Shown here: positions 21,462-37,207 of the stretch, one piece after another
Layout: each line of letters begins with the position of its first letter
How positions within the stretch are numbered: the first letter of the stretch is position 1
Virus genome (UHGV): UHGV-0114133
Reading direction: 5' to 3' (one strand)
Source of the DNA: a virus
DNA length: 38,826 bases
The notes under the pieces: model-generated
Database searches by the model: none
Seen by the model: only the letters and a program-made list of their open reading frames with translations
What the model was told of the DNA's origin: nothing
Program-made: the position numbers and the translations under genes

Positions 21462-21478
21462 AAAACAAATTGTTTAGA
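21462..21478 (+). promoter_or_regulatory. Cassette leader motif (AAACAATTTGTTT core)
   Basis: aaaacaaattgtttaga. Confidence 0.4.
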
Positions 21479-21503
21479 CAAATGATTAATGAGAGTTAAC
21501 AAC

Positions 21504-21527
21504 AAGGGCCGCTGACGGCCCTTTTGT
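21504..21527 (+). terminator. Hairpin terminator or attenuator
   Basis: AAGGGCCGCTGACGGCCCTT followed by TTGT; lies between the motif and the 21544 start. Confidence 0.45.
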
Positions 21528-21543
21528 ACTGAATGGAAAACGT

Positions 21544-22359: not shown

Positions 22360-22419
22360 CCGTCAGTATGGACGTCCACCTTTATGTAGCGTTTGGCCAC
22401 CTTTTCAGTCACGTCACAA

Positions 22420-22449
22420 TAACACAATTGAGAAAACAACTTGTTTAAA
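22420..22449 (+). promoter_or_regulatory. Cassette leader motif
   Basis: taacacaattgagaaaacaacttgtttaaa, 19 nt upstream of ATG 22468. Confidence 0.45.
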
Positions 22450-22467
22450 AACATAAGGAAAAAACAC

Positions 22468-23028
22468 ATGTGCGAAAAATGCAAAAAAACTAATGCCAAA
22501 GTTGAAAGCGTGATTAAAAAAGTTGGTGCGGCCGAACTGGTTGAGATCATGGGTCTTGTGGTTGGTCACGAAGACGACGCCTCCCCTATTGACCGCCTTT
22601 TCAGCGTTCTCAAGTTCTCAAGCATGATTGATGATCCGATTGAAATTGTGATGCTGGCGCGTCATTTCGGCGAAGCGTATCTGGAAGAGAAAGAACGCGC
22701 CGACAAACTTCAGGCAACTCTGGAAATGGTAAGCAAGCCGAAGTGCTCACCGGATTCAGTCAAGGCAGATGAAACCAACGCCAGCAAAGATCGTGAAATC
22801 GCCGGGTTGAAGTCTTCTCTGGCGATGTTGCTGGCCGCCTTCAAACTGATGTCTTCCCAGGCTGGATTCAAAATGCCTGAGCTGAACAGCGACGATCCGA
22901 TGGCCGTTCGCCAGCTGCTGGGGGCAATGGCCGACCAGCTTGACGACACCAAGAGCCGTCTTGAAGACATGATGCGCGAGCTGACCCACCGCCACAACCT
23001 GAACAAACAGCCGCACAAGATGAGGTAA
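22468..23028 (+). CDS. hypothetical protein (186 aa) with N-terminal CxxC
   Basis: RBS GGAAAAAACAC before ATG; track start 22441 rejected. Confidence 0.55.
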   Translation: MCEKCKKTNAKVESVIKKVGAAELVEIMGLVVGHEDDASPIDRLFSVLKFSSMIDDPIEIVMLARHFGEAYLEEKERADKLQATLEMVSKPKCSPDSVKADETNASKDREIAGLKSSLAMLLAAFKLMSSQAGFKMPELNSDDPMAVRQLLGAMADQLDDTKSRLEDMMRELTHRHNLNKQPHKMR

Positions 23029-23049
23029 ATATTTATATATTAATAATAA

Positions 23050-23095
23050 TTCCTTAAGGTGGCTACAGCCTCTTAAGGAATTATTTGGCTTTTTC
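23050..23095. terminator. Bidirectional terminator between convergent genes
   Basis: TCCTTAAGG...CTTAAGGAA stem followed by TTATTTGGCTTTTT. Confidence 0.5.
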
Positions 23096-23122
23096 GCAAA
23101 TGATAAGAATTATATCGTTGTT

Positions 23123-23566
23123 TTATAAACCTGGGTCAATAATCTCATCTATGAAGTCGCGAGATTTATCGTTGAATCCCAACGCGGAGAAACGCATAAC
23201 AAGATCATTATTTTGAATCGTAACATAGTCTTTGCGCATAAATTCTCCAAAAATATATTTGATACCCTCTTTAGTGTAGGCATACCAATACATTCCTATC
23301 GTACGATCACAATTCTGATACCAACGAAGTTTCACGCCGTTGACATACATGCCTTGAGCTACGCCACTACCTGAACACTTAAAGAAATTCCGCGAAGTAA
23401 GGTAGATGTTTGCATTGCCATCCGACGTTCTTTCTAGGAACACATACCAATTACCGTCGTCTGACATTACAACAGGTCTTCCTGTTTCTGTTAAATACCA
23501 TCCTTCGGCATTAGCTGATGCTAAGCTACTGATAAACAAAAATACTGCGATAACTAACCTGTGCAT
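23123..23566 (-). CDS. secreted protein with signal peptide (147 aa)
   Basis: MHRLVIAVFLFISSLASANA signal-like N-terminus; Trp/Tyr-rich mature part. Confidence 0.6.
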   Translation of the reverse strand: MHRLVIAVFLFISSLASANAEGWYLTETGRPVVMSDDGNWYVFLERTSDGNANIYLTSRNFFKCSGSGVAQGMYVNGVKLRWYQNCDRTIGMYWYAYTKEGIKYIFGEFMRKDYVTIQNNDLVMRFSALGFNDKSRDFIDEIIDPGL

Positions 23567-23726
23567 TAATGTGTCCTTTTAATTCTGTTATATGCAGATT
23601 GAGATGCTTTGCTACGTAATTAATATTATATCTAGGTTGAGGTCAAGAATCTAATACTAGGAATTGTCAACATTAATTCTATTAACGCACCCTAATAAAA
23701 AGTATTGGTTTCTTTTAAGTTTTTTA

Positions 23727-23760
23727 GATAATAACACCAACAAGAAAACAATTTGTTTAA
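23727..23760 (+). promoter_or_regulatory. Cassette promoter/leader motif (type I)
   Basis: gataataacaccaacaagaaaacaatttgtttaa, 11 nt upstream of ATG 23771. Confidence 0.5.
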
Positions 23761-23770
23761 TGGTGCAATC

Positions 23771-25456
23771 ATGAATACAGCCCTTTCCATCATTGACGCT
23801 TTCACCCCAAACACTGATATCGACTACCGGCAGGAAATGAATGTTATCCACGAAATTGTGGCCGAATGCGAGAAAGAGATTGCGTTCATGAATAAGGTTC
23901 ACGACTTCGTTTATGGCGACGAACGCCACAACATGATTAACCGTCTACTGCGGCTCAATCACCGGCCGGACGACGAGCGAACACGCTTTAACAGAACCTG
24001 GCTGGACAAAGTCGACCTGGAATGGGTGAAACAAAATATCTGGGCCGAGTACTGGAAGAAGGTCACGGATATGACCAACGTTCTGCTGATCATGCCAGCA
24101 TCCCGCCGCGACGAGTGGCGTGAACAGTTTATCGAGGGCAAGCAGGAAACGATCAAGACTGACAGAACTGGCTATCAAATGAAGGTTAAAGAGTTCGTTG
24201 GTGTACCTGAGTTCAAAGCAGAAACGGTCATACCAACGATGCTTAATTTGCTGAATGACAGGCACAAATATCTCTCTGAGCGCGTGTATGGCTTGTTTAA
24301 GGCGTTGAGTCCTGCTCACAAGACCAATAAGACGAACGGCTTCAGCGAGCGTCTGATCATCGCCGACTGCATTTCCGATTTCTGGCGGGACAGCGTCAGC
24401 GTTAACTACCGGAAAGAGGATTACATAGACGACCTGCGCGTCATGTTGCATTTCTTTGCACACAAAGAATTTATCACCATCAACCGCACGGCCGAGATGC
24501 TGTCAGCTGCGTATCGAGCAAATGACTGCCAGACCGGCGACTGGATGAATGTCGACGGAAACCTGATGCGTGTGAAGATGTTTAAGAACGGCAACGTTCA
24601 CTTTGAAATACATCCTGACGTAGCCTGGAAGCTGAATGAGGTGCTGGCTTACAGTATGCCCGCTGCAATTCCGGCTCCATGTCGTACTGCGCCCAAAACA
24701 CGGGCACCAAAACAGTTCGGGTTAATCCAGAAGACGATCTCCGAGCCGGTGCGTACTGCGCTTTGCGACGGGCGATCTGGCAATGACAAACGCGTATGGT
24801 ACTTCTCTGATTCCGGTCTCCAGAAGTCACAGGTGGAAGAGCTGGAGCGTACACTGAGCTTTATTGGCGGCGTGCAGGAGAACAAGCACTGGCAGTTCCC
24901 GTATGAGATCGGCCATACGCTCAATACGATTGTGGCCACCGGCTTAATACCGGATACAAAATCACACCAGTTCTACCCTACCCCGCGTTTGATAGCGGAG
25001 TACGTTGCCAGAGCCATCGAGCTGAAGCCAGGTGAGAAGCTGCTGGAGCCTGAAGCCGGGCGCGGAGATCTGCTGGCCTGCATCGACGCCAATCCGGAAG
25101 ACGTTACCTGCATAGAAGTCGCACCTCTCTTCGCTGATATCCTGCTTGGCAAGGGGTACACAAATACGGTCTGCTGCGACTTCATGAAGTGGTCTGAGGA
25201 CAACGCAGGTTATCAGTTCGACAAAATCGTTATGAACCCGCCCTACTCTCTTGGCCGTCACAGAGAGCATACGCTGGCCGCGCTGGAGCATCTTAAAGTC
25301 GGCGGGCGACTGGTGGCTGTACTGCCGGGTGATGCGCCAGTTCTGAACTGGATGTCGCTGGATAATTACGTTTATGCCAAAGGGAAGTCGTTTACTGACG
25401 AGTTTGAAGACACCGGGATTACTGTCAGCGTATACGTTTTTAAACGCGTTAAATGA
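23771..25456 (+). CDS. DNA methyltransferase (N6-adenine type) with about 430-aa N-terminal domain of unknown function
   Basis: C-terminal AdoMet motif LEPEAGRGDLL and catalytic NPPYS. Confidence 0.7.
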   Translation: MNTALSIIDAFTPNTDIDYRQEMNVIHEIVAECEKEIAFMNKVHDFVYGDERHNMINRLLRLNHRPDDERTRFNRTWLDKVDLEWVKQNIWAEYWKKVTDMTNVLLIMPASRRDEWREQFIEGKQETIKTDRTGYQMKVKEFVGVPEFKAETVIPTMLNLLNDRHKYLSERVYGLFKALSPAHKTNKTNGFSERLIIADCISDFWRDSVSVNYRKEDYIDDLRVMLHFFAHKEFITINRTAEMLSAAYRANDCQTGDWMNVDGNLMRVKMFKNGNVHFEIHPDVAWKLNEVLAYSMPAAIPAPCRTAPKTRAPKQFGLIQKTISEPVRTALCDGRSGNDKRVWYFSDSGLQKSQVEELERTLSFIGGVQENKHWQFPYEIGHTLNTIVATGLIPDTKSHQFYPTPRLIAEYVARAIELKPGEKLLEPEAGRGDLLACIDANPEDVTCIEVAPLFADILLGKGYTNTVCCDFMKWSEDNAGYQFDKIVMNPPYSLGRHREHTLAALEHLKVGGRLVAVLPGDAPVLNWMSLDNYVYAKGKSFTDEFEDTGITVSVYVFKRVK

Positions 25457-25476
25457 TAGGTAAATGCTTACCTAAT
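25455..25476. promoter_or_regulatory. Palindromic operator-like site
   Basis: gataggtaaatgcttacctaat overlapping the methyltransferase stop. Confidence 0.45.
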
Positions 25477-25518
25477 ATATGTAAGAATATAGTGACTATA
25501 TGATAAGAGAAAAAACAC

Positions 25519-26208
25519 ATGAGCAATCTTCCGTTAGAGCGTTTTAACGTCAAAAGCCATGCCGACTTTCCTTTCAAATTTGTAATGAGAGGTTATGCAG
25601 AGGAAGCAGTAGGCCAGATCATCATTGACAAAGGCATTGTTAAGTTTGAAGGGGATTATGATGAATCCGCGAAAACATTCATAGACTTCGTTGCTAAACG
25701 TTGGAGCGAGCAATGGAGAGACCTGGAAAAACGTGCTCGTAAATTTGATACATTCATGTCTTCAATTGATACAGCAAAAACGGCTCTGGCTGCGGGTACT
25801 CCGTTAGATTTGGAGTCTCTGTTTAAAGGTGAAATGGCCTCTGCGATGTTCGCAACCATGTTTGCCGGTGAGTTTGTTCGTAGCGGGGCCAGAAACTACC
25901 TGGAGCTGGGGTACGACGTTCCTGAAATGGGTGAGTTTACCGTCACCATTCAACGCAAAGAAGGTAAGACTCCTGGCGAACGTATCGCTGAACTTGAGGC
26001 CGTTGTGGATCAGCGTAACGGCGAGTGCGTCCGTTTGATTAATGAACGTGATGCGCTGCGCGAAGAGCAGCTAAACAAAGGCTCGAACACGCGCGCGACC
26101 GCAGACATCTACTTCCAGTTGGTTGAGGAATGCCAGATCCCGCCAGGTGGCTCTTTGGTCGAGTTCGTTCGCGAATTGCAGGAGAAAGCAGAGAGGTGCG
26201 CGGCATGA
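25519..26208 (+). CDS. hypothetical protein (229 aa)
   Basis: RBS-like GAGAAAAAACAC before ATG; no recognised motif. Confidence 0.6.
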   Translation: MSNLPLERFNVKSHADFPFKFVMRGYAEEAVGQIIIDKGIVKFEGDYDESAKTFIDFVAKRWSEQWRDLEKRARKFDTFMSSIDTAKTALAAGTPLDLESLFKGEMASAMFATMFAGEFVRSGARNYLELGYDVPEMGEFTVTIQRKEGKTPGERIAELEAVVDQRNGECVRLINERDALREEQLNKGSNTRATADIYFQLVEECQIPPGGSLVEFVRELQEKAERCAA

Positions 26209-26444
26209 ATGATCTGCTTGTCGAGCGAGTCTCCGCTTTTGTTAAGTCCCCGCTGAATAATCCCCTCACCCGCGGTGAGCAGATGGAGCTGGCAAGGTGG
26301 TTTCTGCGTATCCATGAGCAGATGGAAGTTTTTAAACAGTTGCCGGATCTGCCCATTACAGACGGCCAAATTCAGTGTGCCACTTCAGTACGGTCGACGA
26401 TGACAACGACGCAAACCTGCTTTTCGTCAAATCCGAAATCATAA
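26205..26444 (+). CDS. hypothetical protein (79 aa)
   Basis: ATG overlaps upstream stop (ATGA). Confidence 0.45.
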   Translation: MNDLLVERVSAFVKSPLNNPLTRGEQMELARWFLRIHEQMEVFKQLPDLPITDGQIQCATSVRSTMTTTQTCFSSNPKS

Positions 26445-26490
26445 AGTTGCGCAGGGAGAGAGAGAAATCGACGCAGAGCAGGCCCGCAAT

Positions 26491-26706
26491 ATGTGGGACG
26501 AGGCAGAAAACGCTGATGACGTAAAAGAAAGTTGCTGCTGTTTCGGTGTCGGTAACGAACTGCTGAGTCTGTTTGGTGACGATCCGTGGTATGCCGGTTG
26601 GCCAACGGTGCCAAACCCCAGATACCAATACCTGGAACGTATCATGAACGCGGTACGTGATGGGCTGAAAGAGCTTCACAATCAGATGAGAGAAGCAATC
26701 GGTTAA
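26491..26706 (+). CDS. hypothetical protein (71 aa)
   Basis: ORF with protein-like composition; start uncertain. Confidence 0.4.
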   Translation: MWDEAENADDVKESCCCFGVGNELLSLFGDDPWYAGWPTVPNPRYQYLERIMNAVRDGLKELHNQMREAIG

Positions 26707-26744
26707 GTGCTATAGTCAGGCGCTTTTATATTTATGGAGTGAAT

Positions 26745-27443
26745 ATGAAAAATATCCTACTGGCATCATTGTTGGTGGCATCGCCGGCTGTATTTGCAGC
26801 CAGCTTTGACTGCCAAAAGGCTTCGGCAGAAATCGAACACAAAATCTGCGATAACGAACGCCTGTCAAAATTAGACGAACAACTTAGCTCTACCTATTCC
26901 AACGCACTCAAAGCAAACCCGGGGGACGCAGACGCCTTAAAGACGGTTCAGCGTCAATGGGTAAGTATGCGTGGAAAACTCACTGGTGATAAGGCTCTGG
27001 AGCTGGCTTATCTAATCCAAATTAATGGCCTCAAGAGTTTGGATGGTTCGGCCAGCACTGCGGTGGTCAATGAGACACCAAAGCCTGTGCAGAAACAGCC
27101 TGAAGTTCAGGAAAAGATAAGCAAGGCAGACACAAAGCAGGCTGAGAGCGGTAAAAAGCTAACTCTGGAGTCATTCCGAGCTAAGTATATTGAAGTTGAC
27201 GGTGAATACTACAGCACGACATCCCTTCCCAGAGGGAGTTCGTTCTTGTTCACCTGCGCAAGTCGTATCGCAGATGACCAGGTGAATATTTGGAAGAAGG
27301 TGGCAGCCAAAGAGGGCAAGATCGATCTCTTCTTTGAACTTGAGAATCGAATACATACCGCAATGCTGAATGCCAATTTTCAGAAGCTAAATAGTGATTT
27401 AACTAAAACAGGCATTTGCGATCTGATTACTGCTGTTCCGTAA
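26745..27443 (+). CDS. periplasmic protein, LprI/DUF1311-like N-terminal domain
   Basis: Signal peptide MKNILLASLLVASPAVFA, then SFDCQKA...E..IC.N..L..LD..L...Y pattern resembling the lysozyme-inhibitor LprI family. Confidence 0.55.
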   Translation: MKNILLASLLVASPAVFAASFDCQKASAEIEHKICDNERLSKLDEQLSSTYSNALKANPGDADALKTVQRQWVSMRGKLTGDKALELAYLIQINGLKSLDGSASTAVVNETPKPVQKQPEVQEKISKADTKQAESGKKLTLESFRAKYIEVDGEYYSTTSLPRGSSFLFTCASRIADDQVNIWKKVAAKEGKIDLFFELENRIHTAMLNANFQKLNSDLTKTGICDLITAVP

Positions 27444-27450
27444 GCCAGAT

Positions 27451-27471
27451 AAGGCCACTATTTGTGGCCTT
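27451..27471 (+). terminator. Hairpin of the AAGGCCAC...GTGGCCTT terminator family
   Basis: aaggccactatttgtggcctt directly after the 26745 gene; no U-tract. Confidence 0.4.
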
Positions 27472-27488
27472 AAACAATTTGTTTAATT
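27471..27488 (+). promoter_or_regulatory. Cassette leader motif
   Basis: taaacaatttgtttaatt. Confidence 0.4.
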
Positions 27489-27787
27489 AGTGGTGTAATT
27501 ATTGGAATCCCAGGCGAACTAAATCCATTGGGCAGAACAGATCTTCCACACCTTCGATAGACACGCAGTCAGAGCGGCGTAATTGTTCTTCTGATTTGCC
27601 TTCCCCACTGATTTCTCTGATTACTCCCGTTGCGCCATTCATTGCCACCATGACATGGCTGCCGATAGTGATAGCATTACGGTTTCGATCATACGCCTTT
27701 ATCGTTTTCTCCTTTCACATGGGGCAAATCAGGTTTCAAAAATTGCCGTTTTCCATGTATATGCGATTTGCAAAATATCAATTTCCT

Positions 27788-27801
27788 AAACAAATTGTTT
27801 T
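27788..27801 (+). promoter_or_regulatory. Cassette leader motif (core only)
   Basis: aaacaaattgtttt. Confidence 0.35.
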
Positions 27802-27887
27802 CACCAGCTAGTTATTACACACAGGCGAAGTTGACCGCGCTTCATATAAATATCACTGTTTATACATACAGTGTATAAGAGGAAAAA

Positions 27888-28154
27888 ATGGGCGGAAAAG
27901 ACTCAAGCTATCAGATCGTTTACAGAGGTGAGACGCTCGAAAACTTTAAACCGGGGCAGTATGTCTTCTTTCAACGAGCGAAGGAGTATGGCGGCGGATA
28001 TTGGTTGGGCAGGACTCATGAAGATGGGTTCGAGTTTTTGCTGGAGGAGCCAACCTCGCTGGGAAGAGGTTTTGAGTTTCTGATAACTCACTCGAGCGTG
28101 GAGGCCAGATTTATGGAGTTCGTCGACGATGCGGACGACTTCAAACTCACCTAG
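27888..28154 (+). CDS. hypothetical small protein (88 aa)
   Basis: GAGGAAAAA RBS before ATG. Confidence 0.55.
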   Translation: MGGKDSSYQIVYRGETLENFKPGQYVFFQRAKEYGGGYWLGRTHEDGFEFLLEEPTSLGRGFEFLITHSSVEARFMEFVDDADDFKLT

Positions 28155-28196
28155 TCATCCCTTAAACATCTTGTTTTCTGCCTTTCGTTATTTGAG

Positions 28197-28232
28197 ATAA
28201 TAATACCAATAAGAAAACAAATTGTTTAAGGA
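28197..28232 (+). promoter_or_regulatory. Cassette promoter/leader motif (type I)
   Basis: gataataataccaataagaaaacaaattgtttaagg, ending 8 nt before ATG 28240. Confidence 0.5.
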
Positions 28233-28239
28233 GTTGATC

Positions 28240-28476
28240 ATGTTCGGAACCGCAAAAGACATCATCGAAAAGCTGGAGAACTACCCAGAAGACGAGCCGC
28301 TGCTGATGGTGATGTGGCACAAGGAAGATGTAGGTGAAGTGCGACCAGACCTGACTGACGAACAGTGCGTTCAGGTTTTGCGAAAAATCAAAGAGTGCCA
28401 TGACACCAGCGTCGGCGTGAATTGGGATGTCATTTCTGACACGGCCAACATTCTGTTTCCAAAGGAGAAGGCATGA
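28240..28476 (+). CDS. hypothetical small acidic protein (78 aa)
   Basis: AGGAG RBS then ATG at 28240; track start 28222 is TTG inside the motif. Confidence 0.55.
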   Translation: MFGTAKDIIEKLENYPEDEPLLMVMWHKEDVGEVRPDLTDEQCVQVLRKIKECHDTSVGVNWDVISDTANILFPKEKA

Positions 28477-28793
28477 TGCTGAAAATCACCGAATCGTATA
28501 AGACGGCGGTGATCAGCACCGCCCACGTAACGGCAGCGGATTCAGAACGGCTACCCATTGCCTGCTTCGACCCACTTACTGATCGCGGGTTGAATTGGTT
28601 ACACGGTACACAGTACGGCTGGATTGTTCGTGCTGGAATGCGAGGGAATGACTGGAAGGAAGAACTGCGTGAGTACGGCATTTCCCAAGAGGCGATCTCC
28701 AACATACAGACCATACTGGATGACGGCTTTGACGTGGTTCACTTCGATTGCGACGCCGAGCTGGTGGATGGGCTACCTGCATGGGAATGGTGA
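28473..28793 (+). CDS. hypothetical protein (106 aa)
   Basis: ATG overlaps upstream stop (ATGA); RBS AAGGAGAAGG. Confidence 0.55.
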   Translation: MMLKITESYKTAVISTAHVTAADSERLPIACFDPLTDRGLNWLHGTQYGWIVRAGMRGNDWKEELREYGISQEAISNIQTILDDGFDVVHFDCDAELVDGLPAWEW

Positions 28794-28869
28794 TCGCCCA
28801 CTCGTTGAGTAATCATGTCATATAAGCGAAGAAAATTGGTAACATAGTACCGCTTTTTAATCTGATGGA

Positions 28870-29439
28870 ATGGATGTGATGGAAACCCAGAACCAACAAA
28901 CAAAACCTCTGAATAATGCTTATGCGTGGCTTCTAGCTTTACTGCCTCTCTTCTTTGGAGCACCGCCAGATGAGTATTTGAATTATGCAATAGTGATAGG
29001 TGGAGTCGCTGGACTCGGCTTTCTGGTGGCTGACAGAATGGCATTGTCTGATGCAGGGTATGAACCACCGGCCATCCTGTGGGGAGTATTTCTCCTTCCG
29101 GTCTATCTCTGGAAACGTGCCACCGTTACAAAAGGCAGTCGACTTCCTTTTATCGTAATCGTCGCGTTGCTTGCTGGTAACATCTTCATCGGTATCCCAC
29201 ACCAGGAAGAGGTTGCTCTTGAAGAAGCGGCTTGTCCTCTCGTAACGACCATTCTGAAAGAGAATAACGGAACCACAGCGCCGAAATGTATGAAGGTGAC
29301 AATTCAGGACAAGGTGACGGACAAGTTCTATAAAGCGACGGCTACGCTGGATAACGGCAACGACATAAACGTTACTCTGGAACTGACCGGCGAAAGAAAC
29401 TTTTATGTGCGCGTTCCGGATGCCTATCTGAACAACTAA
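28870..29439 (+). CDS. integral membrane protein (189 aa)
   Basis: Several hydrophobic segments (LLALLPLFFGA, IVIGGVAGLGFLVA, ILWGVFLLPVYLW, FIVIVALLAGNIFIGI). Confidence 0.55.
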   Translation: MDVMETQNQQTKPLNNAYAWLLALLPLFFGAPPDEYLNYAIVIGGVAGLGFLVADRMALSDAGYEPPAILWGVFLLPVYLWKRATVTKGSRLPFIVIVALLAGNIFIGIPHQEEVALEEAACPLVTTILKENNGTTAPKCMKVTIQDKVTDKFYKATATLDNGNDINVTLELTGERNFYVRVPDAYLNN

Positions 29440-29783
29440 CGGCTGCAACTCGTTGATATTGGCGGTCACAAATTGAGGATTTCTATAAGAGTCCGTTGAT
29501 CGCCACTTTCCCCACCACCCTACCCCACTCAATCCCAGGCGTGACAAGGCATTTAAGCCAATTACACCCATAAGAAAACAAATAAATAACACATCAACGT
29601 AAAGTCAACGCTTTCCCCTGATTTGGTCTAAAAAGTTGATGTTTTCGCACGCCATCTCTTATACCCAAAATCCTGTGTGCCAGAATCCATCTCCCCGCGA
29701 CCAAAGCGTCAAAAACGACTCGTGATACCACCCAAAAACAGACACGCTCAGAAGCGCTCCCGTTGCGTTATATTGGGCATCTA

Positions 29784-29816
29784 AACAAGTTGTTTTCAGG
29801 CATAAGAAAACAAGTT
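29784..29816 (+). promoter_or_regulatory. Cassette leader motif, two adjacent partial copies, with no gene downstream
   Basis: aaacaagttgtttt then agaaaacaagtt. Confidence 0.35.
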
Positions 29817-29867
29817 AACCACACCCACAGGAAACCCAGAGACGCCATTACCCACAATCCCGGAAAC

Positions 29868-29959
29868 ACCCACCTCTTCCTGTCAGGCTACCGAAAAGAC
29901 CCACCTCTTTGCCCCAGGCTACAGAGCACCCACCTAATCTCCCCAGGCAACCGAGAACG
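29868..29959 (+). repeat. Tandem triplet of about 30-bp C-rich repeats
   Basis: cccacctcttcctgtcaggctaccga / cccacctctttgccccaggctacaga / cccacctaatctccccaggcaaccga. Confidence 0.6.
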
Positions 29960-30536
29960 CAGCTCGCGCACGCAAACCCCTACACGCCATTACCCAATAC
30001 ACGGAGAAGAACAGCCAGAACGAAACCCCGGACAAACCCAGACCAGAACAGGAACCGTCGCAATCTCGTTTACCCACCATTACCCCGAAAGAGAGCGCAA
30101 ATTCCTGAATAGCAGGGAACGTCATTACTTCATATGCGGAGAACAACAAAAGCGCCCTACTGCCATTACCCACACTTCCATCAATTCACGTAAACGAAGA
30201 GAAAAGCGCACCTGCCATTACTCCATACACGGAGAAGAACAATCACCAAAACGACGAGAACAACCCAGACGAAAACACAGAGAAGAACCACCTCAAGAAG
30301 AACGAAACCACATATGCCGGTAGAAAGAACAAACCACCCATTTCACCCACAGGAATAGTCGCCGTATTGAGCGTTATCAGAGAGAAGGTTTATGCCCACA
30401 TAAGAGAGAAAATTCGTGGGAGGTATAAGTGGGAAGGGAAGGAGGGGTATCGCCACTTTCTTCGTATAAATTCAAGCCATAGTTTTCATCCCCCGTAACG
30501 TCCCTTTCCACCCCTTCGGTCAGCCTTCGGGCCATC

Positions 30537-30680
30537 CAGGGAAAAGGCCATGTCCCTTTTCAGAAACGGGAGCGTCGCCGCAGGGAAAAGGCTGGAGGTT
30601 TTTCAGGGAAACGGTGGGAATCCCGCTATACGAACCGGGAAAAGGCTGGCTGCCGGTCGGGAAACGGGTACATCCCGGTA
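30537..30680 (+). repeat. Tandem triplet of about 45-bp G-rich repeats
   Basis: cagggaaaaggc...ttttcagaaacgg / cagggaaaaggctgg...tttttcagggaaacgg / ccgggaaaaggctgg...cgggaaacgg. Confidence 0.55.
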
Positions 30681-30988
30681 CAGAGCGAGGGACGACTGCG
30701 GGAGCGGTGCGGGAAATCTTCGGGAGTGCGCCTTACTCTTCACTCGCCTGAAAATCGCGAGGGAGTGTCGTTCCCTCTCGTGCAGCTACTGGACTCCATT
30801 CTGCCAGACCATCATCGGGTCTCAAGCGATTTCAGTAGGTTTTCGGGGAGAAGGATATTCTGCCCACCAGCCCCGCGGCGCGCGTAGAGCAGAATATCGT
30901 AAATACTGGCTCCCGTGTCGTTCCCGGATATTCACTACCCAGCCTGGCTTTCCCGACATAAAATCCTTTTTCGCCTTTGTCTTATTGC

Positions 30989-31023
30989 GATAATAACACC
31001 AACAAGTAAACAACATGTTTAGA
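30989..31023 (+). promoter_or_regulatory. Cassette promoter/leader motif (type I)
   Basis: gataataacaccaacaagtaaacaacatgtttaga. Confidence 0.5.
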
Positions 31024-31052
31024 CGTTATATAAACGAAGTGAGGATGAAGAG

Positions 31053-31271
31053 ATGATTAAGATGCCTGTGACGGTTGAGGTGTGGGGCGTGGATTCCCTG
31101 GCTGAGTGTCTGGATGCCGTGGGGCCGGAGTTGTACCGCAAGTTGTGGTCGTTCGTCCCGGCAGAAGGGGAATCGCCCAAAGGGAAGGATATCTGGCACC
31201 TGCTGAGTGAAGATGAAAAGCGGGAGCTGGTGGACGCGGTACACAGCGAGTTCCCGGACGACGAAGATTAA
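31053..31271 (+). CDS. hypothetical small acidic protein (72 aa)
   Basis: GAGGA RBS 7 nt before ATG; Asp/Glu-rich. Confidence 0.55.
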   Translation: MIKMPVTVEVWGVDSLAECLDAVGPELYRKLWSFVPAEGESPKGKDIWHLLSEDEKRELVDAVHSEFPDDED

Positions 31272-31276
31272 GAGTG

Positions 31277-31300
31277 AGGCCACCAGCACGGTGGCTTTTG
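31277..31300 (+). terminator. Rho-independent terminator
   Basis: GCCACCAGCACGGTGGC followed by TTTT. Confidence 0.6.
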
Positions 31301-31371
31301 TCGCTATTAACCTCCGGGGCAGCGCAGCACCGTAACGATATACTTTGTGGCCGTTTTCTTACTGGTATTGT

Positions 31372-31402
31372 TTACGCAATTCAGAAAACAACATGTTTAA
31401 GG
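31372..31402 (+). promoter_or_regulatory. Cassette promoter/leader motif (type II)
   Basis: ttacgcaattcagaaaacaacatgtttaagg; the upstream 60 bp is homologous to 31831-31890. Confidence 0.5.
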
Positions 31403-31410
31403 ATTGCTTT

Positions 31411-31740
31411 ATGTTTGCAAATATCGACATCAACCAAATCAAGAAAATGACTCAAAAAGAGTTTGACCAGTTTTATGAGTTAGAAGGTTGGTCTTCCACG
31501 CTGATCAATTCGCGCTGGGTGCTTGAGCTGATGACTCGTGATGATGCTCCTGCTTTGATTATTTGCGACATGGGTGAAGATGCTGACTTTATGGATATGA
31601 GCGAATTTTGTGTGGACACATACAACCGCAGCCAGAAGTACTACTTCACATGCGATAGCGAGAATGACGTGATTTCTAAGCTCTATCTTCACCTTGTCCA
31701 GCATTGGGACGTGCAGGAATTCCTTGAGTTATTCGCGTAA
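31411..31740 (+). CDS. hypothetical acidic protein (109 aa)
   Basis: AAGGA RBS before ATG 31411; alternative ATG 31393 lies inside the motif. Confidence 0.55.
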   Translation: MFANIDINQIKKMTQKEFDQFYELEGWSSTLINSRWVLELMTRDDAPALIICDMGEDADFMDMSEFCVDTYNRSQKYYFTCDSENDVISKLYLHLVQHWDVQEFLELFA

Positions 31741-31863
31741 GCCCAACCAAAGCCAGCACCGCCTGCTGGCTTAACTTCTCTGTAGCCGCAGGGAAGAACC
31801 ACCTTTAGATAATTCATGTGCCTGAGCAATATGCTTTGTAGCCGTTTTTACACTGGTATTATT

Positions 31864-31893
31864 TACGCCATTGAGAAAACAATTTGTTTACGG
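31864..31893 (+). promoter_or_regulatory. Cassette promoter/leader motif (type II)
   Basis: ttacgccattgagaaaacaatttgtttacgg. Confidence 0.5.
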
Positions 31894-31900
31894 AGTGGTG

Positions 31901-32212
31901 ATGAATACTTCATTGGTGCTGGGTCTTGCTGAAGGCCAGGAGAGAAAAGAAAAACCAACCTTAATGGGGCATCTCACATTGCTGGATATCGTAGCGAATG
32001 GGACTTCTATCCGTCTGTTTCGTGAAAAAGCCATTACCTTCGACGCGGGCAATTTTACGCGCTATGTGATGGTAGTTCGTCGCCAGCGTGGAAGAGGGTG
32101 GATGTCGGTCCAGAAAATGTGGCCAGAGGACCAGCTTGAACTGGCGCTGATGGAAGCCAACCGTGTCGCCCAACAAGAGATCCAACGAGCGTCTGTTCAG
32201 GCGGTAGCTTAA
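31901..32212 (+). CDS. hypothetical protein (103 aa)
   Basis: GGAGTGG RBS before ATG 31901. Confidence 0.55.
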   Translation: MNTSLVLGLAEGQERKEKPTLMGHLTLLDIVANGTSIRLFREKAITFDAGNFTRYVMVVRRQRGRGWMSVQKMWPEDQLELALMEANRVAQQEIQRASVQAVA

Positions 32213-32246
32213 ACATGTGCAAGCAGTAGTTAGTCGAATGTACGAC

Positions 32247-32276
32247 AGCCCCGCCAATCCTTCGGGGCTTTTTTGT
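32247..32276 (+). terminator. Rho-independent terminator
   Basis: AGCCCCGCCAATCCTTCGGGGCT followed by TTTTTT. Confidence 0.65.
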
Positions 32277-32297
32277 ATTGTAAGTACTTACTTATGA
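32277..32297. promoter_or_regulatory. Palindromic operator-like site
   Basis: attgtaagtacttacttatga, about 35 nt upstream of the 32334 gene. Confidence 0.45.
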
Positions 32298-32333
32298 TAA
32301 TAAAATTAAAAATTAAACACTAAGGAGAGTGAA

Positions 32334-32729
32334 ATGACCGTTAAACGCGAAAATCTGACCCTGGATATGTATTATGCATCAGAGACGGAAAATGGAGACA
32401 AAGTTGCAAAAATTACAATTGTGCTACGCGATAATGCCTCCGGCGAAGAAGTTCACACCAGTACCTTAACTCGCACCGGCGAGGCCACAAAGGGGAAATA
32501 TTCGGTGCGTTACCAAAGCATCAGTAATGCTTCTGACCCTTTACTGATAAAACTGGAAACTCATTTCCGTGGCGCGGATCAGACGTTGTTTGAAAATTTG
32601 ATGAAAAAGGTCGATGCGGTTTATACATCGAGTTTAAATACCAATAGTACCTGGATGGGACAACACGGTCTGCGAATAATCTCCGGCGAAAAGATCGACA
32701 CCATTGTCCCTGAAAGCGTATTCGCTTAA
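32334..32729 (+). CDS. hypothetical protein (131 aa)
   Basis: TAAGGAGAG RBS before ATG. Confidence 0.6.
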   Translation: MTVKRENLTLDMYYASETENGDKVAKITIVLRDNASGEEVHTSTLTRTGEATKGKYSVRYQSISNASDPLLIKLETHFRGADQTLFENLMKKVDAVYTSSLNTNSTWMGQHGLRIISGEKIDTIVPESVFA

Positions 32730-32741
32730 TCCTCTTTGAAT

Positions 32742-32766
32742 GGCGCGTACCCCGCGCCATTTTCTT
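32742..32766 (+). terminator. Rho-independent terminator
   Basis: GGCGCGTACCCCGCGCC followed by ATTTTCTT. Confidence 0.6.
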
Positions 32767-32772
32767 ATGCCC

Positions 32773-32793
32773 GATAACAATTTGTTTTCTGCC
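32773..32793 (+). promoter_or_regulatory. Cassette leader motif (core variant)
   Basis: gataacaatttgttttctgcc. Confidence 0.4.
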
Positions 32794-32846
32794 TTATCTG
32801 ATTTGTGAAAATGATTTCACTGAAGCAACTTAATAAGGAAACCATC

Positions 32847-33221
32847 ATGGGACTTGATATCTATATCGAGACGCAGCCTAAAAACGATCTGAATAACGAG
32901 GCATCCAGAAAGCAGGTTGCTTACTTCCGTAAGTTCAATGCGCTCGTTGGGTGGATGGAGCGCAACGTAGGTGAAGTCGAAAATTGTGAGCTTTTAGAAT
33001 TAACGATGAATGACATTTGTTTTCTGAAGGCTCATTTGATGCACATAAACGAAAGTAATTGCGAAGAGTACTTGCCTACCCAGGAAGGTTTTTTCTTCGG
33101 CAGTCAGGAGTACGATGAAGGTTACTGGCATGATGTGGGGGAGTTGAAAGAGATTGTGGAAGATCTGATTAAGAACCACGACTTTCACAATAATAGACTG
33201 ACCTTCTGCGCCTGGTGGTAA
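32847..33221 (+). CDS. hypothetical acidic protein (124 aa)
   Basis: AAGGA RBS 7 nt before ATG 32847. Confidence 0.55.
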   Translation: MGLDIYIETQPKNDLNNEASRKQVAYFRKFNALVGWMERNVGEVENCELLELTMNDICFLKAHLMHINESNCEEYLPTQEGFFFGSQEYDEGYWHDVGELKEIVEDLIKNHDFHNNRLTFCAWW

Positions 33222-33223
33222 AT

Positions 33224-33367
33224 ATGGGCGATTTCAAGAAACGCCTGAAGGAGAGAGCCGAGATGGTCAGAAAGCGAAACGCCTCTTCTGTCATAAGATA
33301 CGCAAGGCAGTTTAGTCGCAACAACAAATCAGTTGAGGAAAAGATCCTTAGCGTAATCGGGCGATAA
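33224..33367 (+). CDS. small basic protein (47 aa)
   Basis: Below track cutoff; ATG 2 nt after upstream stop; followed by family hairpin at 33373. Confidence 0.3.
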   Translation: MGDFKKRLKERAEMVRKRNASSVIRYARQFSRNNKSVEEKILSVIGR

Positions 33368-33372
33368 TTATT

Positions 33373-33396
33373 AAGGCCACCAGCATTGGTGGTCTT
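33373..33396 (+). terminator. Hairpin of the AAGGCCACC...GGTGGCCTT terminator family
   Basis: aaggccaccagcattggtggtctt. Confidence 0.45.
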
Positions 33397-33505
33397 AAAT
33401 GACTTTTAATAACCGAAGGTTAGTTTGAAACCTGGCTATCAACTTCCAGAACCTTTCTTGTGTATTCAGCCTGTATTAACTTCTTTTATGCCTTATCTAC
33501 ACTGC

Positions 33506-33540
33506 GATAATTACACCAACAAGAAAACAATATGTTTACG
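33506..33540 (+). promoter_or_regulatory. Cassette promoter/leader motif (type I)
   Basis: gataattacaccaacaagaaaacaatatgtttacg. Confidence 0.5.
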
Positions 33541-33556
33541 CAGTGAGGATATGCTC

Positions 33557-33838
33557 ATGACTGATTTCACCATTACCCCTAAAGCACAAAATGTATTCCT
33601 TGAATCATGGCTGGACTTGCCGGAAACAGAACAGCAAGAAATGGATCATGTGGAATATGACGAGCAGGTAAGCACGCGATTCTTCCACTTTGAGGGCTGC
33701 GTTTACGACATTGCCGACTTCATGCGAGATGACCGCTTCCCTGAATGGCACGCAAGCTATCCACTAAACGCCTTCGCCATGCTGATGATCCGTGTGGATG
33801 ATTCAGGGGATACCATCGACATCGGTCTGCTCCACTAA
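33557..33838 (+). CDS. hypothetical acidic protein (93 aa)
   Basis: GAGGA RBS 7 nt before ATG 33557 (alternative ATG 33551). Confidence 0.55.
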   Translation: MTDFTITPKAQNVFLESWLDLPETEQQEMDHVEYDEQVSTRFFHFEGCVYDIADFMRDDRFPEWHASYPLNAFAMLMIRVDDSGDTIDIGLLH

Positions 33839-33843
33839 AGAGT

Positions 33844-33867
33844 AAGGCCACCAATGCTGGTGGCCTT
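33844..33867 (+). terminator. Hairpin of the AAGGCCACC...GGTGGCCTT terminator family
   Basis: aaggccaccaatgctggtggcctt. Confidence 0.45.
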
Positions 33868-33871
33868 AAAT

Positions 33872-33960
33872 GACCATCCTGTTTCCCGCAGGCTAAAAAC
33901 ACCAACCTCTTACCTCCAGGCAACCGACAAACCCACCTGTTCCCGTCCGGCTACCGCAAC
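33872..33960 (+). repeat. Second tandem triplet of about 30-bp C-rich repeats (paralogous to 29868-29959)
   Basis: ccatcctgtttcccgcaggctaaaaa / ccaacctcttacctccaggcaaccga / cccacctgttcccgtccggctaccg. Confidence 0.6.
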
Positions 33961-33989
33961 TTTCCACTTTGACGCCTTATTCGTACAAC

Positions 33990-34028
33990 GATAATTAACA
34001 CCAACAAGAAAACAATTTGTTATTTACG
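33990..34028 (+). promoter_or_regulatory. Cassette promoter/leader motif (type I)
   Basis: gataattaacaccaacaagaaaacaatttgttatttacg. Confidence 0.5.
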
Positions 34029-34042
34029 ATAAGGAATTAATC

Positions 34043-34525
34043 ATGAATTTTATCGCTACTGTAAACGCACCCGCACATGGCAATATCGCTGTAACGTTCT
34101 CTGACATTGAAAAACGAGTACTTGGTGCATGGCGCGACAATGAGACGGTAGAACTGTCAGCACAAGAAAAATGCATTATTGCACGCGACATCATTGGCAA
34201 TCGTCGTTACTCGCGGGTATTTGAGAAAGCATATGTGGTAAATTCTGGATTCGGAACGTTCGTCTTTCCGGTGCGCTCCGGGCGATTCTGCCAGTCCAAG
34301 CTGATTGAGTTCGCTACGCAGATTTCTGTCTGGATTAAAACTCAATCGTCGTTCAAATTTTCCGACGATGAAGCAGTATCGCAGGGGATGCGGATCGCCA
34401 ACAATGCAATAAAATGCAAAAACATTACGTATGCCGCTGGCGTTGACACATGGAAACTGTTTTGCGCTAACTTTATGCTGAATGTATACGCAAGCAACCG
34501 CATCCACATCCTTGATGGCGTGTAA
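34043..34525 (+). CDS. hypothetical protein (160 aa)
   Basis: AAGGA RBS before ATG; flanked by C-rich and G-rich repeat blocks. Confidence 0.6.
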   Translation: MNFIATVNAPAHGNIAVTFSDIEKRVLGAWRDNETVELSAQEKCIIARDIIGNRRYSRVFEKAYVVNSGFGTFVFPVRSGRFCQSKLIEFATQISVWIKTQSSFKFSDDEAVSQGMRIANNAIKCKNITYAAGVDTWKLFCANFMLNVYASNRIHILDGV

Positions 34526-34532
34526 CTGAGAA

Positions 34533-34557
34533 GAGGGCCAGAAACGGCCCTTTCTCT
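34533..34557 (+). terminator. Rho-independent terminator
   Basis: GAGGGCCAGAAACGGCCCT followed by TTCTC. Confidence 0.55.
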
Positions 34558-34572
34558 ATAGCCACCAGCTGC

Positions 34573-34720
34573 CGCAGGGAAATTTTCAGAAACGGCGAGG
34601 AACGCATTCATGAGCCGAAGGGAAACGACCATGAAATTTTCTGGAAACGGCGGGGGTCGCCTTTATGTAGAAAACTGAGCGGGAGAAACCCGGAATCGCG
34701 CCAGAAATTGCGTAGCGGCG
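34573..34720 (+). repeat. Second block of G-rich repeats (paralogous to 30537-30680)
   Basis: cagggaaattttcagaaacggcgagg / aagggaaacgaccatgaaattttctggaaacggcgggg. Confidence 0.5.
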
Positions 34721-35414: not shown

Positions 35415-36065
35415 TTACGCTTTGAAAGCATCAGCCAGATAGTTATAAAAATCATTTTTAACGAAGCGATATTGCTGTGATCCGTTTTTCGCTGCACCCA
35501 TTCCTTTGATTTTTTCGACCAGTCCCAGACGTTCGCAAAGATTGATAAGCTGGTTGGCTTGAGTGTATCCTGCGTCTAATTTTATTTCGTTGGCTTTTTT
35601 CGCTTCATTCATTAAATCGAAAACAGCGCCATTGGTGAACGTGTCGATCTCGTCGTTAATCATATCGATTAATGCGAATACACGAGATCCTGACATATCA
35701 GCGACGGAATAAACACATTTACCAGCTTTAATGGATTTAACCAGATAAACCAGTTTTTCCAGAGAATAACTATTAGTCATTGCTTCGCGGAAAAACGCTT
35801 CAGGTGCTTGTTTGCTTGCTTTAATCGCGTAGTAAAAGACACCAGCTAATTTCTCATCATTAACAGCGTTTAAAACGTTGTTGGTGAAGTATGCTAGTTT
35901 GGTAGACGCTGCAAGCATGTTAGCTTTATCCGCTTTTGTGTGTGTACCATTTTTATAATGATTGTTATAAGTCTGAGTAGCGTTGTTGGCTGCAACTTGC
36001 AATTCATTAGCGATAACTACAGCAGCGTCGATGATAGCTTTTTTAGAGATAGCAATGTTAGACAT
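35415..36065 (-). CDS. hypothetical protein (216 aa)
   Basis: Long ORF in AT-richer region; no recognised motif. Confidence 0.55.
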   Translation of the reverse strand: MSNIAISKKAIIDAAVVIANELQVAANNATQTYNNHYKNGTHTKADKANMLAASTKLAYFTNNVLNAVNDEKLAGVFYYAIKASKQAPEAFFREAMTNSYSLEKLVYLVKSIKAGKCVYSVADMSGSRVFALIDMINDEIDTFTNGAVFDLMNEAKKANEIKLDAGYTQANQLINLCERLGLVEKIKGMGAAKNGSQQYRFVKNDFYNYLADAFKA

Positions 36066-36694: not shown

Positions 36695-37207
36695 TCAAAA
36701 AGGCAAAATTCGTTCAACCCAATCGAACAAAACAACTATTTTTCTACCGTTCTCGACACGTAGTGTAACCTGACAAGCATCTGCGCCTGCTGACACCCCC
36801 TCAATTTCACGGCCATCCGCCATGTAAACCCTTATAGACTTCTGTGTTTCATGAGCCTGACGACAAATTCTGAAGAAGTCGCGGCGAGATGGTTGGTTGT
36901 TCACGTAGTCCGGATGTATGGTAAGCCTGCCCGTAAAGCCCTCATCTACTTCTGGAGGTATAATCGTTTCTATGGTGCTAACTCTCTCAATAGGAAGACG
37001 AACTCGATGCTCTTTGCTTCCTGGAACGGGAGAAAGATCGAGTTTGTTGCGTGATGGTAGTGTTCCCTGTATGTACATGTTGAACACTTGTCCATCTTCC
37101 ATCGTGACCTTTACAGGAACAGAGCGTGCCCTCCAGAACATCAAGGTATGTTCCACATTCGAATAGTCTCTGGGCCAGACCTCTGCAGGGATGCCATATG
37201 TAACCAT
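36695..37207 (-). CDS. hypothetical protein (170 aa)
   Basis: Co-oriented with and 3 bp upstream of the 36383 gene (operon). Confidence 0.55.
   Translation of the reverse strand: MVTYGIPAEVWPRDYSNVEHTLMFWRARSVPVKVTMEDGQVFNMYIQGTLPSRNKLDLSPVPGSKEHRVRLPIERVSTIETIIPPEVDEGFTGRLTIHPDYVNNQPSRRDFFRICRQAHETQKSIRVYMADGREIEGVSAGADACQVTLRVENGRKIVVLFDWVERILPF

Follow-up and report, generated by a model that had tools for sequence, protein, structure and literature searches.

What links a run of small, unrelated genes that each appear to carry the same promoter and leader? In the window analysed here, the whole 38,826-nt stretch of the virus genome UHGV-0114133, an earlier description made from the sequence alone (the original prediction) divided positions 27444-34560 into about 11 single-gene cassettes, each with a leader of about 33 bp and its own hairpin terminator, encoding mostly small acidic proteins. 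It took this layout as the mark of an accessory or anti-defence island. We find that the shared leader contains a 13-bp palindrome with the properties of a repressor site, and that the region is probably the early accessory arm of an SSU5-type phage-plasmid, its genes wired through one reusable and repressible promoter cassette. The evidence comes from the enrichment and position of the motif, its distribution over the genome, the silence of the genes behind it in a lysogen, and the junctions of insertions and deletions.

The palindrome, AAACAA-N-TTGTTT, gives 28 strand matches, or 14 sites, in the window at no more than one mismatch. Chance predicts about 0.8 sites; the figure for shuffled sequences is 1.5 strand matches, with not one shuffle in 100 attaining 28. 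All 14 sites are confined to 21463-34010, 10 of them lie 24-81 nt 5′ of a plus-strand ATG, and the palindrome is usually placed 13 nt 3′ of a predicted extended -10 element (TGnGATAAT) and 24-45 nt 5′ of an ATG. An alignment of 59 non-redundant sites from ten sources (the window, the phages Cyrano and SSU5, and seven plasmids) shows that the 12 palindrome positions carry 1.2-1.9 bits and that the centre base is uninformative. Upstream, positions -19 to -14 relative to the palindrome hold a -10-like hexamer (GATAAT, CACAAT or similar) whose last base is T in 50 of the 59 sites, and TG is frequent at -22/-21, two bases 5′ of the hexamer. The conserved leader of the original prediction spans 33 bp, from the -10 hexamer through the end of the palindrome. 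It is also present ahead of the genes at 22468 and 23771, as had been claimed, and a further site at 21463 lies ahead of a rha/ant-like gene.

With a start placed 6-8 nt after the hexamer, the palindrome would be centred near +14. A second class of site lies directly 3′ of a terminator hairpin and over the -35 element of the next promoter. Several promoters carry both classes, with centres 51 bp apart: 28164/28215 in the window, 93114/93165 in Cyrano, 8721/8772 in SSU5 and 9730/9781 in the Klebsiella oxytoca plasmid L014. Within 27.4-34.6 kb, the palindrome is found at seven plus-strand promoters, those of g5, g8, g9, g10, g12, g13 and g14 (Table 1). The units of the array end in eight hairpins in all; those after LprI, g8, g9, g11, g12b, g13 and g14 fold at -10 to -19 kcal/mol, and the g10 terminator is a canonical GC stem followed by T6. 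At 27451-27484, 32741-32787 and 33371-33398 the hairpin directly abuts the next putative operator and promoter.

As RNA, the palindrome is nearly unstructured (0 to -4.4 kcal/mol, typically -0.7, against -10 to -19 for the terminators), and this folding energy rules out an RNA stem-loop. Scans of the window with Rfam and for tRNAs and tandem repeats returned nothing relevant. An invariant sequence that shows no covariation points to recognition of double-stranded DNA by a protein. We consider it probable that the palindrome is the site of a dimeric DNA-binding repressor, because the sequence is invariant and twofold symmetric, its centre is free, and its positions at or upstream of the putative start are fixed.

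The same leader might instead act as RNA, as a translational operator or enhancer in the 5′ untranslated region for which T4 RegA sites offer a comparison, or the promoter might depend on an activating factor encoded by the phage. Given the placement of the start, the palindrome would be transcribed, at 3-30 nt from the Shine-Dalgarno sequence. The leader ACACCAACAAGAAAACAA, rich in A and C and unstructured, resembles known translational enhancers, and silence in a lysogen is compatible with a missing activator. Recognition of single-stranded RNA, however, needs neither perfect twofold DNA symmetry nor a free centre base, the predicted RNA hairpin of the palindrome is negligible, and the class of site over the -35 element is 5′ of the start and so outside the mRNA. 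To our knowledge, +14 is not an activator position at sigma-70 promoters. We regard an RNA or activator role as improbable and retain the repressor site as the preferred reading.

The replicon that carries these sites is, judged by its sequence, part of an SSU5-type phage-plasmid, because of its plasmid and phage matches, its shared gene order and the group-typical genes outside the array. In a search of a plasmid collection, segment 27444-34560 matches 782 enterobacterial plasmids, the best of which, from E. coli, cover 98% of it at 96% identity; identity to SSU5 is 86%, and to the E. coli phage Cyrano, which matches the right half, 92%. Annotations of SSU5 and of the closest plasmid give the same gene order as the window, with nearly all genes of the arm labelled hypothetical, and the rest of the window encodes an insertion sequence (IS) transposase, a Rep3 initiator, SbcCD-like genes and thymidylate synthase. 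Matches and gene order together bear out the phage-plasmid nature of the replicon that the original prediction had assumed, and place it in the SSU5-like group.

The palindrome reaches well beyond the array. The full Cyrano genome, concatenated and scanned at no more than one mismatch, holds 18 sites, all in annotated intergenic DNA or in a conserved non-coding block described below, and 17 of them are at most about 90 nt 5′ of a plus-strand gene. The genes behind them include terS (two sites), parA, a DnaB-like helicase gene, cobT, nrdB, tciA and the array. In a viral contig collection, a 16-base version of the motif gave many single chance matches, and all seven multi-copy contigs examined are SSU5-like. 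Because core genes of Cyrano carry sites and the multi-copy contigs are all SSU5-like, the module reads as a genome-wide property of the SSU5-like group and not as the signature of an accessory island. On this point the original prediction fails: the leader it had tied to anti-defence functions also stands ahead of terS, parA, the helicase gene, cobT and nrdB.

Expression data are available for Cyrano, a relative of the window replicon. In RNA sequencing of an E. coli LF82 lysogen, operator-preceded genes of the Cyrano prophage have 5-25 normalised reads at a median background of 9.8 (terS 7.1, helicase gene 21, cobT 7.8, nrdB 12.9, array genes 5.7-25.5; PMC9928086, S1 Table), and Cyrano is induced 39-fold by ciprofloxacin (PMC9928086). 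This silence fits repression in the plasmid state, and silent homologues of array genes are as expected for early or accessory genes.

In the mechanism that we propose, in which promoter activity, repressor binding and expression timing are predicted, each cassette would comprise, in order, the terminator hairpin of the preceding unit, an optional palindrome over the -35 element, an extended -10 sigma-70 promoter (TGnGATAAT), an A/C-rich leader, the palindrome about 14 nt past the start, a Shine-Dalgarno sequence and a small open reading frame (ORF). A candidate dimeric repressor encoded by the element would occupy the palindrome at +14 and sometimes also the one at -37; two sites 51 bp apart would probably share the same helix face and might be looped. 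The repressor would keep about 20 transcription units genome-wide off in the plasmid state. Once repression is lifted, upon infection of a naive cell or induction, host RNA polymerase would fire all units at once, with the hairpins insulating neighbouring units, and the array would yield small, mostly acidic, lineage-restricted early proteins. The module of about 33-100 bp would also be a recombination joint, because it recurs in the same orientation and has a palindromic core, so that operator-to-operator units could be deleted, duplicated or inserted in either orientation.

Several observations weigh against this picture. The -35 elements are weak, and a generic promoter scan did not call the palindrome-linked sites. 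Silence in the lysogen is equally compatible with an activator-dependent promoter, and the parA operon is expressed there at 50-89 reads despite its perfect operator (PMC9928086). Short-homology recombination at the module is deduced from just three junctions, described below. Across genera the operator does not vary, yet two candidate regulators that are universal have drifted to about 52-56% identity; a conserved host factor would fit such a pattern. One of the two, CYRAN_45, is annotated as a helix-turn-helix repressor and is expressed in the lysogen, but its divergent control region carries another palindrome, GGTAAG-NN-CTTACC, which makes it a less likely binder.

Candidate binders encoded by the element come from the CYRAN_29, CYRAN_117 and CYRAN_45 families, all of which lie outside the window. 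Two small lysogen-expressed proteins look by eye like ribbon-helix-helix proteins, one of 119 aa after parA and one of 92 aa beside a uvsW-like helicase gene; the latter and CYRAN_45 are universal, yet diverge to 52-56% identity. Other genes make poor regulators: the rha/ant gene is absent from Cyrano, g12b is absent from many lineages, and a well-conserved 216-aa protein (35415-36065) is not expressed in the lysogen.

The 119-aa protein, which follows a small ParA ATPase (CYRAN_29 family), could be a partition-type regulator that autoregulates parA and also silences the lytic and early promoters. Omega of pSM19035 and KorB of RK2, partition-linked or global regulators, are precedents for such a dual role. 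A perfect operator lies about 48 bp 5′ of parA in a promoter kept in E. coli, Klebsiella and Salmonella elements, the protein shows a ribbon-helix-helix-like motif by eye (KSRTMSLEDEYFELL...SDVIRAAI), and it is at least 90% identical in most of 797 plasmid matches, in keeping with the invariance of the operator; the level of parA expression in the lysogen is as for an autoregulated gene. The family is, however, absent from Yersinia pMT1-type plasmids, which retain operators ahead of nrdB, g13 and g14. The parA site is single, with no centromere-like cluster, and is degenerate in a distant Moellerella relative; Pfam gives no match for the protein, leaving its fold assignment to the eye, and its gene is outside the window. 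We consider this identity of the binder unlikely. Less likely again is the wider scheme in which a single ParG-like ribbon-helix-helix protein binds all of the roughly 20 palindromes and joins partition to lytic and early silencing, and in which the palindromes double as orientation-free joints for recombination, through which operator-to-operator units move between SSU5-like elements. Were it true, the array would amount to a stock of novel early proteins that act in host takeover or anti-defence.

Alternatively, the binder could be a conserved DNA-binding protein of the host and not a product of the phage-plasmid. The site is identical in Escherichia, Salmonella, Enterobacter, Klebsiella, Cronobacter and Yersinia elements while the element-encoded candidates diverge, and pMT1 retains palindrome sites. 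The multi-copy occurrences in the viral collection, on the other hand, are all in SSU5-like elements, and we know of no E. coli regulator whose consensus matches, those of KdgR, CusR, PhoP, IHF and MntR differing in spacing or half-sites. A host factor seems a poor prospect beside a repressor encoded by the element, which we continue to favour.

We compared the window proteins with twelve related loci using tblastn. A syntenic core of g8, g10, g11, g13 and g14 is present in E. coli, Salmonella, Enterobacter, Klebsiella and Cronobacter elements, and pMT1 retains g13 and g14. Variable among relatives are g4, g5, g7, g9, g12/g12b and an extra gene ahead of g8; g9 is found only in the E. coli lineage, and the g12 unit in some lineages only. 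The turnover of genes between conserved leaders, for which the original prediction proposed a comparison with relatives, is thus real, with junctions at the leader, but moderate: the arm keeps a syntenic core and is not hypervariable.

Three junctions fall exactly at the module. First, Cyrano lacks g8: its g8-type promoter runs, at the operator, straight into the leader and coding sequence of g9, the product expected if the g8 and g9 operators had recombined in a window-like ancestor. Second, g9 carries a 69-nt copy of the g10 leader in the window (31338-31406 and 31829-31897, 83% identity), which accounts for the near-identical sequence previously noticed upstream of these two consecutive cassettes. 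Third, ydfZ is an inverted 316-bp insertion (27485-27800) bounded by two perfect operators; the Klebsiella relatives L012 and L014 lack this segment, and there the hairpin-operator abuts the g4 promoter. The distal end of the insertion carries the promoter half of the leader (ATAATTACACCACTAATT). Because all three junctions coincide with the module, the exchangeable unit would run from operator to operator, and the cassette shuffling suspected at the outset is upheld by three indels or junctions bounded exactly by operators.

Some smaller features accompany these junctions. The leader-like promoter half behind ydfZ abuts a terminator hairpin like an 'empty' cassette. The g9 operator core at 31386-31398 reads AAACAACATGTTT, and its Cyrano counterpart at 95801-95813 is the exact reverse complement, AAACATGTTGTTT; the imperfect centre of the g9 palindrome appears to have flipped between the two. 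At the position of g4-g7, the Klebsiella relatives L010 (880-5668) and L011 (1-5389) carry type I restriction-modification genes and a DUF262 protein, with an AAA ATPase in L010, and this cluster directly adjoins the conserved non-coding block. The arm accepts defence or conflict-related cargo, as these two relatives show.

The module is best compared with the promoter-early stem-loop (PeSL) cassettes of T4-type phages, with an operator added. PeSL cassettes are sigma-70 promoter and stem-loop modules ahead of ORFans that mediate indels, replacements and mini-circles (Arbiol et al. 2010, PMC2839356; Comeau et al. 2014, PMC4122927). Both systems are terminator/promoter composites lodged between a stop codon and the next Shine-Dalgarno/ATG, recur tens of times per genome, mostly before small non-essential ORFans, and combine sigma-70-type promoters (predicted in our case) with insulating hairpins; the modules of either system mark the ends of indels, replacements and duplications. 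They differ in that PeSL cassettes belong to the hyperplastic regions of virulent T4-type myoviruses, whereas the element here is a temperate siphovirus-type phage-plasmid. Its module contains an invariant 13-bp A/T-rich palindrome that cannot serve as a stem-loop and resembles a repressor site, something that a temperate element needs. The modules here also precede the core genes terS, parA, the helicase gene and nrdB.

Other systems share parts of this design. The C1 repressor of the phage-plasmid P1 silences many small operons through dispersed operators, some of them paired, and likewise here one operator sequence recurs at many separate promoters of a phage-plasmid. The P1 operator is a 17-bp asymmetric site with a known repressor, whereas ours is a 6-1-6 palindrome with no sequence similarity to it and with candidate binders only. 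In cluster A mycobacteriophages such as L5, lytic genes are kept silent in lysogens by stoperators, sites of about 13 bp that number roughly 20-30 and are scattered over short intergenic regions; they are asymmetric, orientation-dependent, mostly not tied to promoters, and block elongation. Size, copy number and intergenic spread are alike, but the palindrome is symmetric and held at a fixed distance from the -10 element. KorA and KorB of RK2 and omega of pSM19035 act at short palindromes at many promoters, including that of the partition operon, and the KorB OB site is also 6-1-6; in our case the sequence is unrelated, the regulated set comprises phage lytic and early genes, and the partition-type binder is only a candidate. 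Integrons, too, line up small exchangeable genes that are unrelated to each other, with imperfect palindromes in between. An integron is ruled out here: there is no intI among the ORFs scanned (only the IS rve transposase at 174-1013), the 13-bp sites are not attC (57-141 bp), and each cassette has its own promoter and terminator.

In the literature we found no paper with the operator sequence or an SSU5-like lysis-lysogeny circuit. SSU5-like phage-plasmids are common in clinical Enterobacteriaceae, and their regulation is essentially undescribed. A single 13-bp operator at about 20 lytic and early promoters offers a handle for finding the master regulator, for annotating transcription units, and for engineering or curing. 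Through its PeSL-like behaviour, the module would bring to temperate phage-plasmids a kind of modular gene shuffling known from virulent T4-type phages, and it predicts where new cargo, including resistance or defence genes, may insert. The array itself is a short, defined list of co-regulated early ORFans for tests of anti-defence and host-takeover functions.

Do the products of the array support an anti-defence island? Eight of the 12 (g4-g9, g12 and g13) are acidic, with isoelectric points (pI) of 4.13-4.86 and net charges of -5 to -15; three (g10, g12b and g14) are basic, and g11 is near neutral. The five products previously described as strongly acidic, from the genes at 31053, 31411, 32847, 33557 and 28240, are all in the acidic set, which those from 27888, 28473 and 28870 complete (values in Table 1). 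Small size and negative charge are anti-defence-like but non-specific features. Searches of the cassette proteins against Pfam, PHROGs and PADLOC returned only DUF5983 (g6) and PHROGs of unassigned function, with nothing from PADLOC; Pfam has no match for g5, whose DUF1380 label comes from relatives' annotation only. A phmmer search of PDB sequences with seven of the proteins gave chance-level matches only, and a multicystatin match of g9 was set aside for want of a significant stretch. No anti-restriction, anti-CRISPR or DNA-mimic family was matched in Pfam, PHROGs, PADLOC or PDB sequences.

Structure prediction adds little to these searches. The g6 model is confident (predicted local distance difference test (pLDDT) score 91.8), and a fold search with it, the fold comparison covering g6 alone, found no similar solved structure and, in a viral library, only DUF5983 phage proteins. 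The g13 model is unusable (pLDDT 59): the alignment behind it is shallow, the family not extending beyond SSU5-like elements. The g13 and g6 families are both largely confined to such elements. A literature search on DUF1380 and DUF5983 found nothing functional. The products are therefore, as first described, small and not assignable by these searches to a known family, and they are also lineage-restricted; we found neither homology to structural or housekeeping functions nor an invariant gene content.

A rival proposal makes the array an anti-defence island whose small acidic DNA mimics, anti-restriction or anti-CRISPR-like inhibitors would be expressed first on entry through the modular promoters. 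Being about what the proteins do, it can stand alongside the regulatory reading. The acidic products are 72-189 aa long, the Cyrano homologues of array genes stay silent in the lysogen, the same operator also precedes the rha/ant gene and an orphan 561-aa methyltransferase gene just upstream of the array, Klebsiella relatives have the restriction-modification, DUF262 and AAA ATPase cluster beside the array, and array gene content differs between lineages. These features are offset by the lack of matches in Pfam, PHROGs functional categories, PADLOC and PDB sequences, by the poor g13 model, and by a five-gene syntenic core, where anti-defence loci typically turn over fast. When SSU5-group contigs were screened with DefenseFinder, Rad alone was reported, at 16-22% among Escherichia and Shigella elements; Salmonella elements had none (bioRxiv 10.1101/2025.09.12.675607), although they carry g8, g10, g11, g13 and g14. 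An anti-defence island thus remains a tentative and rather doubtful proposal, while host-takeover or anti-defence roles, predicted from size, charge and timing, are the most plausible guess for the individual products.

The layout of the arm is given in Table 1.

Table 1 Features of the arm and of the genes upstream of it. Operator denotes the 13-bp palindrome; positions are those of the window.
Feature	Position	Strand	Details
Operator, perfect match	21463-21475		5′ of rha/ant-like gene 21544-22359 (Phage_pRha match)
Operator in leader of the 22468-23028 gene	22434-22446		-10-like CACAAT 22415-22420
Class A module ahead of the 561-aa methyltransferase gene (23771-25456)	23727-23758	+	GATAAT 23727-23732; leader ACACCAACAAGA; operator 23746-23758
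Hairpin (27451-27471), then perfect operator (27472-27484)	27451-27484		-14.8 kcal/mol; terminator for LprI and convergent ydfZ
ydfZ (PF14001)	27499-27702	-	Pfam; operator-to-operator unit, inverted
Perfect operator	27788-27800		Serves predicted minus-strand TGTAAT promoter of ydfZ; 5′ of g4 promoter
g4 promoter (predicted)	27830-27873	+	-35 TTGACC 27830-27835; LexA box CACTGTTTATACATACAGTG 27854-27873
g4, 88 aa, pI 4.66	27888-28154	+	phrog_2100
Dual-operator promoter of g5 (predicted)	28164-28227	+	Operator over -35 28164-28176; extended -10 TGAGATAAT 28193-28201; operator at about +14 28215-28227
g5, pI 4.54	28240-28476	+	DUF1380 by relatives' annotation
g6, pI 4.44	28473-28793	+	Pfam DUF5983
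g7, 189 aa, pI 4.86	28870-29439	+	ORF
Non-coding block	29440-31052		Operator 29783-29795, leader remnants, repeats
g8 cassette	30989-31295	+	GATAAT 30989-30994; operator 31008-31020; hairpin 31279-31295, then TTTTG
g8, 72 aa, pI 4.33	31053-31271	+	ORF
g9 cassette	31338-31770	+	Duplicated g10-type leader 31338-31406; operator 31386-31398; hairpin 31752-31770
g9, 109 aa, pI 4.19	31411-31740	+	ORF
g10 cassette	31829-32275	+	Leader 31829-31897; operator 31877-31889; terminator about 32249-32275
g10, 103 aa, pI 9.8	31901-32212	+	ORF
g11 unit	32278-32759	+	Promoter-like TTGTAA-17-TAAAAT 32278-32306; terminator 32741-32759
g11, 131 aa, pI 5.9	32334-32729	+	ORF
g12 unit	32775-33398	+	Operator over -35 32775-32787; TGTGAAAAT -10; hairpin 33371-33398
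g12, 124 aa, pI 4.60	32847-33221	+	ORF
g12b, 47 aa, pI 11.3	33224-33367	+	ORF, 2 nt after g12
g13 cassette	33506-33868	+	GATAAT 33506-33511; operator 33525-33537; hairpin 33843-33868
g13, 93 aa, pI 4.13	33557-33838	+	ORF
Two further 30-bp repeat copies (family of 29863-29956)	33896-33959	+	Repeat kept in relatives including pMT1
g14 cassette	33991-34550	+	GATAAT about 33991-33996; operator 34010-34022 (1 mismatch); hairpin 34535-34550
g14, 160 aa, pI 9.2	34043-34525	+	ORF

The division into about 11 single-gene units, each with motif and terminator, holds for several cassettes and is supported by the eight hairpins; it does not hold for g5-g6(-g7), g12-g12b, g4, g11 or the minus-strand ydfZ. 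An ATGA overlap joins g5 to g6, and g7 lacks its own motif; g5-g6-g7 are probably one operon, and g12 and g12b look like another. The g11 leader is a degenerate copy that lacks the palindrome. Hydrophobic stretches seen by eye suggest that g7 could be a membrane protein. The GC content of the cassettes is 0.43-0.58, and homologues of the 23771-25456 product are annotated as DUF4942 or class I SAM-dependent methyltransferase. The g12b homologue in Cyrano, CYRAN_109, has 58 normalised reads in the LF82 lysogen against 5.7 for the gene 2 nt upstream, which suggests a separate transcript or small RNA at g12b.

The g4 promoter differs from the others. It overlaps a perfect LexA box, CTGT-N8-ACAG at 27856-27871, the sole one in the window, and the box is kept in all seven relatives that have g4. 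The g4 family is broad, with at least 250 clusters. In 186/P2-like prophages a g4 homologue adjoins a LexA-controlled Tum/DinI-type gene, and in Enterobacter prophages a separate LexA box stands 20 nt 5′ of the start codon of that homologue. These features argue for putative SOS (LexA) control of g4. A small SOS-controlled gene next to a repressor-controlled regulon makes g4 a possible candidate antirepressor.

The array is split by the block at 29440-31052, which has no credible gene. Across nine lineages, column identity in the block is 52-94% per 40-nt window, mostly 70-94%, and the block appears at least as conserved as several flanking proteins (g11, for example, has 38-63% amino-acid identity), nucleotide and amino-acid identities not being directly comparable. 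Substitutions in the block show no 3-base periodicity overall, and Rfam has no family in it. It contains the perfect operator at 29783-29795, two leader remnants, six copies of GCCATTACCCA, GGGAAA(A/C)GG repeats and three 30-bp repeats at 29863-29956, a family that recurs just 5′ of g14, and strand composition flips inside it from C-rich to G-rich. The block may be a lytic origin or a protein-binding array. Sequence of this kind is also noted at 33896-33959 and 34575-34690.

Features elsewhere on the replicon and its relatives include T4-like recombination proteins in the annotation of Cyrano (UvsY, UvsW, a gp32-like single-stranded DNA-binding protein and a RecA-type recombinase). Outside the window, CYRAN_43 (Cyrano 40268-40822) is a 183-aa protein with no Pfam match that adjoins the integrase and repressor genes; it is the top prophage transcript by far, at about 7,000 normalised reads against the background of 9.8 (PMC9928086). 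An HNH endonuclease gene on the minus strand of the window (15981-17003) forms a low-GC patch (0.43) amid plus-strand nucleotide-metabolism genes and is probably a separate insertion. Finally, 36695-37207 (minus strand) encodes an FljA-like protein (Pfam Flag1_repress, E = 1.9e-73) that is conserved in nearly all SSU5-like loci examined, and through it the element may repress host flagellin.

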